From assembly GCA_026770705.1 (NCBI GenBank), contig JANJGN010000026.1:32178001-32242000 (forward strand): a stretch of 64,000 nt of DNA. The letters are read 5' to 3'. Positions 54,387 to 62,659 of the stretch are shown piece after piece; the first letter of the stretch is position 1, and the number at the start of each line of letters is the position of its first letter. The position numbers and the translations under genes were made by a program. Under the pieces are notes generated by a model. It saw nothing but the letters and a program-made list of their open reading frames with translations, made no database searches and was not told the DNA's origin. This DNA comes from Isurus oxyrinchus (Eukaryota).

Positions 54387-54751
54387 AGTTTCTGTACGGA
54401 CTCTCCGTCTGTTAGTTACGCTTTGGCCTCACGGCGCAGAGACCGGCGGCGCTGTCTGTCACTCGGGGGGCCCTCACTGTCATGGTGCTGAATTTAGTGC
54501 CTCCCCGGTTTGAAGCAGTGACACTTCCTTCTTAAATGTCTCATTTGTGGCCATCACCAGATGCTGGAGGGGCTGATTCGGGCGATGTCTGCCCCAGCAG
54601 TCAACGGAGCGGTAGCCGAGCAGTTCAGAGATGCGATTCCCGCTTTACGGAGAACTATCCGCCCAGGGAGCTGCACCACCTCATCCTCACTTGTCACAGC
54701 CGTGTGGAGAAGTATGTAAACCAGTACGAAAACTCGGTAAATCCGGAACAT
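54387..54751 (-). pseudogene. V pseudogene with leader fused to V in one exon (family D)
   Basis: MFRIYRVFVLVYILLHTAVTS-EDEVVQLPGRIVLRKAGIASLNC...WGRHRPNQPLQHL...TMTVRAPRVTDSAAGLCAVR; frameshifts; CAAAGCG-23-ACAGAAACT. Confidence 0.82.
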
Positions 54752-55529
54752 TATTGGACCGGATGAAATGCTGAGAGAATGAATTGTTCACGGAGTTCGG
54801 GTTAGAACTAGGATACGGATATCATGTTATATTATATTATATTATATTACATCGAGGAAAATGAACAACCAGCGGTACCACACACTCCGTCTTTCTGCAG
54901 GATACCAGCTCACATTCTAACTTCAGACCGGGCCGCCCACACTCAGTGTTTCACACTGCCCTCTTGTGGCGTGTACTACTGATTGCGATGTGCTTTTATT
55001 GCTGCTGAATTCGACAAGTTGTATTTCATAGGAGAGTTGTAAATGGGAACAGATTTTCCCTCCTTCTTGGTGTTGTTCGTTTATCCGGAGAGATCTTAAT
55101 TCCCGCCTTTCTTTGCAGACCCCAAAAATTTAGTGTGTTTCTCTCCTCCAGTCTTATTTGATTATTCCTATCATAAAATATGTTTTTACTTATTGAACCT
55201 TTGCCTTACCCGGGTGTGTGCACAATGACACCTTCTTCCTGCTGTTTCAATATATCAACAGTAGTAATAACATTGGTAAATGATAATCAAAGAGCGAAAC
55301 AAACTCTTTCATTCATTTAACATTTTTCACTATTACTGAAGCCTCGAAGGGCTTATAGTCATTGAAGCACTGATGGAAGTATGGTCATTGTTTAATGTAG
55401 GAAATGTAATGTTTAATTTCCGTTCGCCAACTCTCACATACGACAATGTGACAATGACCATATAACTTGTTTTTGTGATGTCGATTGAGGGATAAACATT
55501 GTTAATTCCAAAGCTCTTCTTCGATGCAG

Positions 55530-55740
55530 TATCATGAGACATTTTACATTCACCTCAGCAGAGAGTTTCAGACTCGGGTTAATGTCTCATCGAAAAGACG
55601 TCACCTCCGGCGATGCAGTTCACCTTCAATGATGCACCTGAGCGTCAGCCATGATTTTTGCGCTCAAGCCCTGGAGTGAGATTGAACCCAGAATCTTGTG
55701 ATTCAGTTTGGGAGTCTGGTACCGACTGAACGAGGGCTCA
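55530..55740 (-). mobile_element. Deu-domain SINE
   Basis: GGGTTAATGTCTCATCGAAAAGACGTCACCTCCGGC. Confidence 0.7.
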
Positions 55741-56014
55741 CAATATGTACGAAAATATAAAAGGATATGTACCAATTTCAAAGCAATGGTGCTATTTTTC
55801 AAAGTTCTTTGCAGCCTTCTAGACTCAAGACTGAGTCCAATAATCATAGATCATGATCTTTGCCTCCATCTTATTCATTTTTTTTTTTGCTGGTTCATCC
55901 TTGTCCCGTTTCTTTCTTTATTCCTTCAGATGGCTGTTACGGAACCATACATCTCATTTGGAGAAGTTATTAGTTTGTTTAGAATATTCATTGCCATTTT
56001 TTTGGCTTTTTAAA

Positions 56015-56382
56015 ATTATTTGATGTGATGTTGGCGTCGCTGACAGGACCCATTTGTTGCCCATTCATAATTGCCCTTGAACCGAGAGGTTCCTGAGGCT
56101 ATTTCGGAGGGCCGTTAAAATCCAACCATATTGCTGTGGGTGTGGAGTCTCATGTAGACCATACCAGGTAAAGATGGAAGATTCCCGTCCCTAAAGGATA
56201 CTGTTGAACCAATAAATGTTGCTTTCATGGTCACTATCACAAAAGTAGCTTTCGTTTCCAGTTTTTGTGATTTAAATTTAAATTTCACCACCTGCTGTGT
56301 GGAAGGTTTTAAACCCGTGCACGACACCCTGAGTCGCTCAATTACCAATGCAACAACATAACCACTAGGCTACTGTCTCCCT
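56015..56382 (-). mobile_element. tRNA-derived SINE (38.1-kb family)
   Basis: Reverse-complement similarity to 38068-38448. Confidence 0.75.
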
Positions 56383-57120
56383 ATTAAATATACCCACTAC
56401 CACAAAGCAGGCAATGAGGGTCAAAATGAATAAAATCAAATGGAACCTGTGGGCGGGTCTGCCTGTGCAGGGTTACTGCTGGTTGTCTCTATAATGCCCA
56501 GGAGTTAACAGGGAGGAACTGCGCCCTCTATCGGCACCTCTTAGAATTTTGCGCAATCAGAACAAAGAGAAAAATGAAAATGTATCCGTGGCAGAATTCA
56601 ATAACCAGATTCCGGCAACATTTTCAGAATAACCAACTGTGCAACTATGAAGGATATATGAGTGATGTTAAAGAAAAGGGAATTCTACTTTGTTTGGGAT
56701 CCTTTTCATTCATAACTTAATCCAACCTTTTAAACTCTGTTCATGACACTCGTTTTTTTTTTCCATTTTCTTTCATTTATTTTTCCATCCTTGTCGCTTT
56801 TTCTGAATTTTGCACTTGCGATTGCTGCACCGATTCGCTTTGCTTTTGTCGCTCACTCATTCTGGCTTGCGTGTTTTCTTCCTTTCCCTGCGTCTCAGTT
56901 TCCACCTCTCTTCATTTATGAACCCCTTTAAATCTTCATATATTTCCTTGCATTTGCGCTCAACGCCACTCAACCCCACACCCCCAACCCGCCCTGACCC
57001 ACCACTCCAACCCCGCCGCCCCCCCCCCCCCCACCCCCCAAACCCATATACGGCCCTCGTATTTTTATCACCGCGCCACCCGCAACGCCGATCGTGGAAA
57101 CACGGTAGAACGGAGTTCCC

Positions 57121-57490
57121 ACTCTGTGTACGAGCTCTCAGTTTGCTTGTTACACTGTGGCTGACGGCGCAGAGATAAGTGGCCGTGTCTGTAACCCCAG
57201 CGCCTCTCACAGTCAGGATACTGAGTTTGATGTCTCCCGATTGAAGCAGTGATGCTCCCGTGTTGATTAGTTCCTCTTGTGGTCATCTCTAGATGTTAGC
57301 GTGGTTGATTGGGGAGCTGCCTGTACCAACTCACCGTGTTCACTCCACTGGTGATGATGTAGTTCATGGATACGATTCCCGCTTCATTAACAACCATCCG
57401 CACTGGGAGCTGCGTCACCTCATCTTCGTATGTCACTTCAGTTTAGATCAAAACGGATAAGAAGGAATAGAATCTGCAAATCCGGAGCAT
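57121..57490 (-). pseudogene. Second family D V pseudogene, leader fused to V
   Basis: MLRICRFYSFLSVLI*TEVTY-EDEVTQLPVRMVVNEAGIVSMNY..VSWYRQLPNQPR*HL...LTVRGAGVTDTATYLCAVS; CACAGTG-23-ACACAGAGT. Confidence 0.85.
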
Positions 57491-58979
57491 TATCACGTCA
57501 CATGGAATACCGGCTGAAGCAATTGTCCACGGAGATCAGGTTCGAGCCAGGAAATGGATATTATGTTCAGAAGATTCAACAAGGAGACAAACACCCGCTT
57601 CAGGTCAAACTCAGAGACGTCTTTGTCGAATTAACGAAAGAAGCCGAGCCTTGATGTTTACCGCTTCAGGATTCACACTAACACCGGTTCACACTGTCTC
57701 TGAGCTCATAGTTGGCCAACTACAATGACTACTTCACAGTGATATCGGCTCACACTGTCTCTGAACTAACACGGGGCCGCTCACATTCAACGTTTCTCAC
57801 TGCGCTCTGGTGGTGTGTACCGGTAATTGCATGCTGCAGTTGTTCATTGGAATTCCAGCCAAGCTGCAGTTTAAATGATAGTTGTAAATGAAAGCAGCTA
57901 ATCCCGCCTCTCTGTTATACGTCTCTTAACCGTGGACGATCTACCCCGCCATATCATCTGAAACGTCCAACGCTTCCATTGCATTTTTCTGCTGCATTCA
58001 GGCTGAAGCTTCATTCTACACTGATCATTCACAGTGTGACAAGAGGAATGTCCCAATATTGATCTAAAATCTCATTTTATGGTTTGAACCAGCATGTTTG
58101 CCCATATGGATGCAGGGCGAGCTTTTCCATCGAATATTTATACCCTACCACTGACAACTCATAATAATAAATTATGTCGGACAAGCCAAAATGCCTGCGC
58201 ATGTTAAAATTATTCGTTGCTCCCACGTTCGTTTCTTAATCACCTTTTCTTCAATGAAGCTACTGAACACGTTTGAGAGTCTGGAATTCGCCCCAACACT
58301 GAGCACGTATCTCAGTGCTCTCTTCTGGCGGTGACGTGGTACTGCAAGGCATAGCTGTTCAGTAGTTTTTAGCTTTCCGAATTCCAGATACCTTTCGACA
58401 GTCTCCAAACCTAACCTAAGCGCACTATTTTCTTTTCCTTTTTTATGCTTTATCTTTGCATTTTTGCTGTTAACGTTTGCTGATGAATCCGATTTCCTAA
58501 TTACACCTTCGCCAGGATTATCATTTGTATATTTGTTTGTACCATTCCCACAGCTCTTCTCTTGGGACACCGTCCCCCTTGACATTTAACCTCTCCTGCC
58601 TTGCACCTTATTGCAGGCTTTGCTACTTGTACACTTCCGCCTTAGCCTGCATTTGTACTTGCCTAAAATCCCTTCTATTTGTACCTATATTTTCCGGCTC
58701 TGATAAACCTAACCGAATAAAACTTAGACGGTTTCTCTCTCCAAAGCTGCTGTATGCCCTGCTGAGCGTCTGCAGAATTTTGCATTTACATTTCGGACAC
58801 TATAAAGTTCCTATCGCAATGAGGGAGGCCATGCCGCCAATTCTGTCTCAATAATTCGGCAATGCATCAATTCCCTCCCCCATGTGCCCCCAAACATTTG
58901 CTTAAATTAGTTAGGTGACTAGTCAGCTTCAACTCCAGCTAGGATTTTATTTCACACATTCTTCACTTTCTGTGTGTAG

Positions 58980-60591
58980 ATCTGAGTCATGGAGATTCTG
59001 CCACCTGGCCACTGTTAAAACAGAAAGAGAAGCGGTGATCATCTTCCGAGATTCTATAGACTCTGGAACAGTTCCTACAGATGGGAGGGTAGCTAATGTA
59101 ACCCCAATATTTAAAAAGGGAGGCAGAAAGAAAAAAGGGAATTATAGACCAGACAGCCTGACGTCGGTAGAGAGGAAAATTCTAGAGGCCATCATAAAAG
59201 ATTTAGTAGCTGAGCACATTGAAAACAGAGGAAGGATCGGGAAGAGTCAGCATGGATTTATTGAAGGGAAATTATGCTTGACAAATCTACTGGAATTTTT
59301 CGAGGATATAACTAGTAAAGTTGATGAGGAGGAGCCAGTAGATGTGGTTTATTTGGGCTTTCAGAAGGCTTTCAACAAAGTCCCACATAAGAGATTGGCA
59401 TGTAAAATTAAAGTGCATGGGATGAGAGGTAGTTTATTGAGATGGGTAGAAAACTGGTTGGCAAACAGGAAACAAAGAGCAGGAATAAACGGGTCTTTCT
59501 CCGAATTGCAGGTAGTGACTAACTGGGTACTGCAGGGATCGTTGCGGGGACCCCAGATAATCACAATATCTATTAATGATTTAGATGAGGGAATTAAATG
59601 TAATATCTCCAAATTCGCAGATGACACAAAGCTGGGTGGGAGGGTAAGCTGTGAGGGGGATGCAGAGATTCTTCCGTGTGACTTGGACAAGCTGAGTGAG
59701 TGGGCAAATGCAGTATAAAGTGGATAAATGTGAGGTTATCCATTTTGGTAACAAAAACAGGAAGGAAGATTATTATATGAATGGCTATAAATTGAGACAG
59801 GGGAATCTGCAACGAGACCTGGGTGTCCTTGTACACCAGTCGCTGAAGGTACGCATGCAGGTGCAGCAGGCAGTAAAGAAGGCAAATGGTATGTTGGCCT
59901 TCATAGCGAGAGGATTCGAGTACAGGAACAGGGATGCCTTGGTGCAATTGTACAGGGCCTTGGTGAGACCACTCCTGGATTATTGTGTGCAGTTTTGGTC
60001 TCCTTATCTGAGGAAGGATATACTTGCTATGGAGGGAGTGCAGCGAAAGTTTACCCGACGAATTCCTGGGATGACAGGACTGACATATGAATAAAAATTG
60101 AATCGATTACGATTATGTTCATTGAAGTTCATAAGAATGAGGGGGGATCTCATAGAAACCTGTACAATTCTAACAGGACTAGACAGGATATATGCAGGAA
60201 GAATGTTCCCAATGGTGCGGGAGTCCAGAACCAGGGGTCACAGTCTGAGAATATGGGGTAGACTATTTAGGACTGAGATGAGGAGAAATTTATTCACCCA
60301 GAGAGTGGTGAGCCTGTGAAATTCGTTACCACAGGAAGTAGTTGAGACCAAAACATTGTATGTTTTCAAGAAAGAGTTAGATATAGTTCCTGGGGCGAAA
60401 GTGATCAAATCGTATGGGGAGAAAGCAGGAGCAGGCTATCGATTTGGATGATCAGCCATGATCATAATGAATGGTGGAGCAGGCTCAAAGGGCCGAATGG
60501 CCTACTCCTGCTCCTAGTTTCTATGTTCTATGTTGTTACTGCTCCTTGGGACTCAAAGTGAGTATAACGGCTCAATCCTCGCACAGAAACT
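58980..60591 (+). pseudogene. Family B-like V relic whose interior is replaced by a CR1 insertion
   Basis: 5' part DLSHGDSATWPL/VKTEREAV (58980-59038); 3' part CYCSLG + CAAAGTG-22-ACAGAAACT (60554-60591). Confidence 0.7.
59039..60532 (+). mobile_element. 5'-truncated CR1 LINE (RT domain to 3' tail)
   Basis: NVTPIFKKG, YLGFQKAF, KFADDTKLGG, CVQFWSP; tail CTATGTTCTATG. Confidence 0.95.
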
Positions 60592-61877: not shown

Positions 61878-62659
61878 ATGTCTCCTGTTACTTTGTATTT
61901 ATCCCTCACAGCTGCAGCTCTTTTAACCGGTAGGTTCACAAGTTGCACAACTCTGTGTTTCGCATCTTTACCAAACATTACGTTTACTGGGGCAATTCTC
62001 TCAACACATAGATAACAGTGGATTGATCCTGGGTGAGGAAATCTTCCGTATCCACTTTGCCCCAACACGGGCTTTGACAAACACTCGAGTTTTTAACCCA
62101 TAGACGGTTTTCCGTTTGCCCTCCAATTTACAGGAAACGCGTCGAAATGTCCGTTTATTTAATCGGTCCAAACAGCTTCCAGTTACAGCCCCTGAGCTGC
62201 GGGAAATCTACATCTGTTTAGCCGCCCTGATTCATTTCTCAGGTTAACGGGCCGATTCTGGCGGGGACGTAGTGAAGTGACATTGTATAATTGAATATCT
62301 CTCTGGGCTCTTACAGGACATTGTGGAGGAGATTCCGTTTCACAGACACCGGCCACAGTCACAGTGAGTGAAGGACATAATGTTCAGTTGCTCTGTAATT
62401 TTACAGCTACAACCAGCAACCCTGACCTTTTGTGGTACCGTCAGTATCCCAGCGGATCCCTGGAGTATCTGCTGCAGAGGAATAAATTTAGCGAGGACAC
62501 AGGAAGATTACCGGGAGACCGTTTTTCAGCGGCGTTTGATGATATGAATCGCACGGTCCCGCTGAAAGTGTCTAAAACTGAACTGAGCGACTCCGCGGTC
62601 TATTACTGCGCAGTGAGACCCACAGAGACACAGAGCTAGGCTGAACCTGTACAAAAACT
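61878..62659 (+). CDS. TRAV/DV: Intact TCR alpha/delta V gene (leader 61878-61929, V exon 62317-62620, RSS 62621-62659)
   Basis: MSPVTLYLSLTAAALLT|GHCGGDSVSQTPATVTVSEGHNVQLLCNFTATTSNPDLLWYRQYPSGSLEYLLQRNKFSEDTGRLPGDRFSAAFDDMNRTVPLKVSKTELSDSAVYYCAVRP; CACAGAG-23-ACAAAAACT. Confidence 0.94.

Follow-up and report, generated by a model that had tools for sequence, protein, structure and literature searches.

Copies A and B, two damaged genes in a shark receptor locus, are in our reading dead members of a large and likely functional family of T-cell receptor (TCR) alpha V genes whose leader and V domain form one coding exon, the leader intron having been lost at or near its splice sites, most likely by germ-line recombination with a reverse-transcribed spliced transcript. 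We hold this account as a whole with moderate confidence. The window, by which we mean the whole stretch of 64,000 nucleotides analysed here (C26:32.18-32.24 Mb in a genome of 4.98 Gb), is a cluster of TCR V genes on both strands, equipped with 23-spacer recombination signals, and the nearest named relatives of these genes are from sharks and a chimaera. We refer to the family of copies A and B as the one-exon V family. The features discussed below are the following, with negative positions counted from the leader ATG.

54387..54425, minus strand: degenerate 23-spacer recombination signal of copy A, heptamer without the invariant CAC
54426..54688, minus strand: V-domain pseudogene of copy A; a net 7 nt missing near 54601-54597 shifts the frame and removes the conserved Trp region; more small indels
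54689..54751, minus strand: leader of copy A, ATG at 54751-54749, 21 codons, signal-peptide-like, continuous with the V frame
between 54700 and 54699, minus strand: expected old splice junction of copy A
54871..54872, minus strand: upstream deletion breakpoint of copy A, 144-145 nt absent relative to the duplicates L032 and L033, flanked by a 2-nt repeat
54956..54969, minus strand: CTCF-like motif 5' of copy A, differing from the consensus at one position
57121..57159, minus strand: 23-spacer signal of copy B, heptamer intact, nonamer damaged
57160..57427, minus strand: V-domain pseudogene of copy B; Tyr for the first Cys, stop at codon 65 (57298), 2-nt deletion after 57239
57428..57490, minus strand: leader of copy B, ATG at 57490-57488, 21 codons, stop at codon 16 (57445)
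between 57439 and 57438, minus strand: expected old splice junction of copy B
57514..57661, minus strand: putative 5' UTR intron of copy B, family-conserved, donor-like site near -172, acceptor-like site near -24
57800..57813, minus strand: CTCF-like motif upstream of copy B, one mismatch
58918..59715, plus strand: reverse-transcriptase frame, presumed LINE-type (PF00078, E=1.8e-18), context only

Copies A and B are damaged V genes

A first-pass annotation, made from the sequence alone, had described in both copies an in-frame ATG 21 codons before the EDEV motif; this was borne out, and the peptides are as it had quoted them. It was equally right that neither copy has an AG at the expected acceptor (+52 from the ATG, with the conserved Gln codon 26 nt further on), and that both are pseudogenes, through indels in copy A and through stops, the Cys loss and a deletion in copy B. 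The two Cys and the Trp of the V fold, invariant in all 12 aligned relatives, are broken in copies A and B. Each copy has two duplicates of 98.5-99% identity elsewhere on C26. Of the claim that both keep a 23-spacer signal, the spacing stands but the intactness does not: the heptamer of copy A reads CAAAGCG and the nonamer of copy B ACACAGAGT. Heptamer and nonamer are CACAGTG and ACAGAAACC in 18 of 18 intact copies.

The CTCF motifs described upstream of both copies exist as one-mismatch sites, but they do not characterize the family, being absent by eye upstream of the intact copies L004-L007. Because the window holds 14 such matches, including those of copies A and B, where 0.44 would be expected, we regard them as a feature of the locus and not of the one-exon V family. 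The piece lost upstream of copy A begins with GT and ends one base beyond an AG, and the joint fits the 2-nt repeat; this loss of 144-145 nt resembles a repair deletion of recent date rather than an exact splice-out.

Family members L004 and L023 score above the cut-off for PF07686, and the best single-stretch PDB matches of the one-exon V family are TCR alpha chains. By eye, the neighbouring V gene at window position 62328 resembles nurse shark aV1. A PF09291 search for C alpha, run without a working control, gave no match. Among other V genes of the window, a script for splice sites found a split leader in six, the acceptor only in two more and nothing in one.

The one-exon V family has intact members

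We gathered the family by DNA and protein searches of the species' own genome, which gave 70 protein matches with E <= 1e-11. Counts refer to 70 distinct places, a subset of all places matched, so the number of copies is at least 70. A leader intron is present at none of the 70, and the distance from the ATG to the Gln codon is 78 nt in 45, shorter in 24, unmapped in one and longer in none. The frame is open from the ATG to the 23-spacer signal at 18 places, all with a signal-peptide-like start, and the search for intact paralogues elsewhere that the annotation had proposed was thus successful. C26 carries 44 of the family places between 23.9 and 40.3 Mb, 11 of them intact; this count is the safer one because the five small contigs could be unplaced sequence or belong to a second haplotype. 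The one-exon layout is well supported as real and family-wide, and the intact copies, judged by their sequences, are likely to function as V alpha genes. A decayed copy resembling the family, L066, lies on another large contig (C11:35.95 Mb).

In the 18 intact leaders, the first seven residues carry a net charge of +1 or +2, the best 8-residue hydropathy ranges from 2.0 to 3.6, and V or M occupies position -3 with G, S or A at -1; a predicted signal peptide in the intact copies is therefore likely. Pooled pairwise dN/dS was 0.58 for leader codons 2-17 and 0.52 for V (nine copies, the pairs not being independent). None of the 18 has an AG ending at +52. The hydrophobic stretch behaves as coding in the intact paralogues, supporting a single coding exon for leader and V, and a spliced upstream coding leader, the counter-evidence named by the first-pass annotation, was looked for in these paralogues and not seen.

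An intron-bearing sister family marks the expected junction

The closest family found (L061, L101-L125; hereafter the sister family) shares 39% identity and lies in the same locus; a protein search with it gave no match. Its leader intron measures 179-197 nt in all 25 copies, ending in CAG in 23 and starting with GT in 21. In 14 of 15 intron-bearing V genes, the Gln codon follows the acceptor at a distance of 26 nt (the script had fixed phase but not distance), which places the old junction of the one-exon family at +52 in phase 1. The first part of the leader is then 52 nt long, as against 58 nt for the sister first exon, and first exons of intron-bearing V genes span 34-58 nt. Beyond the junction, the 3' side lines up exactly with the sister, with 13 of 23 identities in an ungapped comparison that was the best of seven offsets. 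Read in the V frame, the last part of the sister intron (L061:700-905) is hydrophobic and free of stops and includes ATGs, and an unspliced sister transcript could in principle encode a leader-like start.

Alignments were judged by self-built shuffle tests with our own parameters, of which several were run and which resolve the junction to about 4-6 nt. When the family from -150 to +52 was aligned as an anchored profile to the sister UTR and first exon, none of 300 local shuffles was as good, and the same alignment ending at the sister donor was the best of seven families with either gap setting (z about 4). As the family end point was moved, the score peaked from +50 to +56, the family ATG fell on the sister first-exon ATG (peak -1 to +6), and the UTR alone, aligned ATG on ATG, was equalled by 3 and 5 of 300 shuffles. 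Once the script had cut out the sister intron, 134 of 229 consensus columns matched the one-exon family. The leader alone did not align significantly with either the sister first exon (58/500 shuffles) or the sister intron end (116/500), and nhmmer with the family upstream region found no match among 35 upstream regions, sisters included. Pairwise local scores were suggestive at most: for one segment the top three of 35 were sister copies, and the other segments showed no clear preference. Homology to the sister was not detected upstream of -170 (101/200 shuffles) or past the nonamer (65 and 70 of 200).

Because the anchored alignments are collinear up to the expected junction, loss of the intron at or near its splice sites is supported. 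The precise loss claimed by the annotation holds to this extent; exactness to the base lies beyond the 4-6 nt resolution, and the first leader parts differ in length. Taken together, these comparisons support an old, near-exact loss in one event, and we infer that the leader is homologous to the old first exon and that the loss has a single origin.

Relatives in other species and the V tree

From Met through the second Cys, a Chiloscyllium punctatum prediction and a JGI protein can be aligned gap-free to the family, a comparison of proteins alone. The JGI protein continues into signal-like sequence, as does read-through of the one-exon family. A search for longer proteins returned only one unrelated multi-domain protein, and two metagenome scans for DNA of the relatives gave no match. 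By its relatives, the sequence evidence suggests that the one-exon V family is old. The nurse shark families are reportedly defined by Criscitiello 2010, which may show leaders.

In a tree of 48 rows and 92 columns, pseudogenes being left out, the one-exon family was monophyletic (100/100) and grouped with the sister family, two Callorhinchus V sequences and a Scyliorhinus V (96/92). Two bird TRAV1-type sequences, one of them a partial row, fell with a lizard V (97/92). Forcing the one-exon family into a clade with bird TRAV1 cost 16.6 log units (p-AU 0.054), and a forced clade with the family of L138 and P0094 gave p-AU 0.18. The phylogeny that the annotation had suggested as a check thus places the family with its intron-bearing sister, while separation from avian V-alpha stands at p-AU 0.054.

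Among the rows of nurse shark aV9.1 cDNA in the accessible part of Ott et al. 2018, 7 of 19 resemble the one-exon family by eye, and one resembles the sister family (PMC5931798). These clones share with the one-exon family the framework and a short second loop, again by eye, and are rearranged alpha-chain cDNAs. They differ in that the aV9.1 label is a mixed bin and, in the part of the paper available, the rows begin at the mature V, without leader or gene structure.

How the leader came to be unsplit

That the hydrophobic stretch is only a pyrimidine tract, with the true coding leader exon further upstream, is barely credible. The intact copies do have candidate splice sites 5' of the ATG, a donor-like site near -172/-173 in all 18 and an acceptor-like site at -24 in 16; the latter, however, sits 24 nt before the ATG and not at V, and the upstream ATG frames listed are all short or closed before V, so none reaches it. 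Codons 14-21 hold no conserved AG, two intact copies being without any and its position differing in the rest, and the ATG and frame are retained in relatives from other species. A signal peptide built from a shrunken old intron, with the old leader exon dead in the 5' UTR, is improbable, even though this exonisation was the reading first favoured by eye. T-rich intron sequence would read as hydrophobic residues, the sister intron end is open, hydrophobic and in frame with V, and there are by-eye matches to the sister donor region as well as a 12/14 match to the sister intron end. Unanchored local profile alignments scored loss and exonisation alike (36.4 and 37.2, the latter with z=3.2). The anchored test for exonisation was not significant, however (51/300, z about 1, no better than control families), nor was the leader's match to the sister intron end reported above, and the family ATG aligns with that of the sister first exon; exonisation was dropped after these anchored tests and is largely refuted. 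Inheritance of the layout from a common ancestor with avian TRAV1 is very improbable: chicken TRAV1 has the same layout, as far as the available text of its description goes (PMC10972964), and the forced clade stays above the 5% level, but the best tree, built on 92 columns with one bird row partial, separates the two.

In the reading we prefer, the leader intron of an ancestral shark V gene would have been removed, at its splice sites or very close to them, by recombination, in the germ line, with a reverse-transcribed spliced transcript, which is the weakest step of the explanation. The template would be an unrearranged transcript, because an inherited loss must happen in germ cells, and this fits the retained recombination signal; the V gene would have stayed unrearranged throughout. 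The intronless V would then have spread by tandem and segmental duplication, and intact copies would rearrange to J like other V alpha genes, needing no leader splice. Recombination with reverse-transcribed mRNA is the usual explanation for intron loss that is near-exact, and end-joining deletion is its rival. A genomic deletion by end joining, which by chance left the frame intact and removed or added a few bases where the ends met, is rather unlikely, and we put the cDNA route at about twice its odds. Deletion would need no germline transcript, the difference between 52 and 58 nt could sit at the joint, and intron-size deletions do occur here, one of 145 nt with a 2-nt repeat having arisen recently beside copy A. 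Against it, the 3' side is in exact, ungapped register with the sister, and the 52 nt lie within the first-exon range with the right phase, two things that a random deletion would rarely meet together. A poly-A remnant was not found within 400 nt from the signal in six copies, where the longest A run was 4-6; an old tail could have decayed.

The recent, local origin implied by the first-pass annotation is contradicted by at least 70 copies and by relatives in other sharks. Its description of the locus as LINE-rich received a light test only, in which one of 18 long frames scanned proved to be a reverse transcriptase, at 1.4 kb from copy B; because the event was neither local nor recent, LINEs now in the window say little about the loss. 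A broader proposal, which we consider speculative and unlikely, is that in the germ cells of sharks cDNA of spliced sterile transcripts from unrearranged TCR V genes recombined back into the locus, and that the leader intron was removed in this way on more than one occasion, in the one-exon family, perhaps in L138-L141, and separately in birds. If true, loss of the leader intron would be a path taken repeatedly as TCR alpha evolved, and would preserve, like a fossil, the record that the locus was transcribed in germ cells.

Comparison with known systems

To our knowledge, nearly all antigen-receptor V genes have a split leader. In the available portion of the chicken study, TRAV1 comprises 48 genes, all but three of them single-exon, most TRGV1 genes also have single-exon leaders, and the single-exon leader of V-alpha-1 is called unique (PMC10972964). 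Chicken TRAV1, so described, resembles the one-exon family as a set of dozens of V alpha genes that are unrearranged and carry leader and V on one exon; the shark family differs in its place elsewhere in the V tree (p-AU 0.054) and in having an intron-bearing sister in the same locus. Marsupial TCR-mu Vj also lacks a leader intron, and retro-processing has been proposed for it in the text available to us (PMC2275272). As described there, Vj is pre-joined to D and J in the germ line, whereas the one-exon family is unrearranged and keeps its 23-spacer signal; no germline pre-joining was encountered in it, the heptamer following V in 18 of 18 intact copies. Nurse shark light-chain V genes are joined in the germ line, according to the accessible part of Lee et al. 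2000 (PMC2193156). They too are antigen-receptor V genes altered in shark germ cells, but they are joined with an intron-split leader, whereas the one-exon family is unjoined and without the intron.

We found no such family described in the available parts of reports on axolotl, duck, newt, catfish and salmonid (PMC12529555, PMC5278385, PMC12698447, PMC8656973, PMC8559430), nor a one-exon leader V family in cartilaginous fish in the literature searched, which lay mostly outside subscription journals. The shark family is probably an independent instance of a rare but known layout. As a second large, likely independent and functional case, it would indicate that the leader intron is dispensable for a TCR V family, and the mechanism of loss is testable because an intron-bearing sister still exists in the locus. 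In shark genomes, the one-exon family would be misclassified by annotation pipelines that demand a splice site in the leader.

A candidate 5' UTR intron and RNA-type contigs

The conserved donor-like and acceptor-like sites upstream of the ATG suggest that a non-coding 5' UTR intron is retained in the one-exon V family, and because of this possible intron "single coding exon" is a safer term than "single-exon gene". Acceptor-like sites 14-18 nt before the leader ATG also occur in the window V genes at 20475, 39944 and 49610, damaged in some copies; such sites suggest putative non-coding first exons in several shark V families.

Six sequencing runs of the species, five of them guessed to be RNA, were assembled against the family and gave few contigs. 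An X9 contig (depth 6) reads unspliced through the candidate UTR intron, the run being only guessed to be RNA. A second X9 contig (depth 2) lacks 300 nt that begin at -130 and end within V, a gap compatible with GT-AG in the paralogue L148, and retains part of the supposed UTR intron. A further, deep X9 contig, with a 36 nt match and loose ends on both sides, was set aside as chance. The joint of leader and V (+52) was bridged by no RNA-type contig, these stopping at +32 and starting at +61, and no V-J joint appeared in contigs from the six runs, X10 and X12 being without matches. In X11, again a run only presumed to be RNA, one contig spans the recombination signal at L023:1840-1990 and represents either an unrearranged transcript or DNA carry-over.

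Other V families of the locus and genome

L138-L141 (C131, C38, C42 and C26:5.96 Mb) form a related V family that matches Scyliorhinus P0094. L138-L140 have an in-frame ATG about 20 codons before V and a 23-spacer signal; L141 has an acceptor-like site at the ATG-to-V region and, by eye, a repeat-like end that abuts the ATG. They could represent either another family without the intron or orphans in decay. In the same family, a V pseudogene that has been truncated (L079 and L127-L137) occurs in tandem arrays on C38, C131 and C100, outside the main cluster, with a period of 1981 nt (also 3140 nt).

Within the window, one V gene has behind it three tandem 23-spacer signals 62 nt apart (window 4888, 4950 and 5012), and its relatives L063, L142 and L143 likewise carry repeated signals; a nearby leader exon was looked for in this family and not found.
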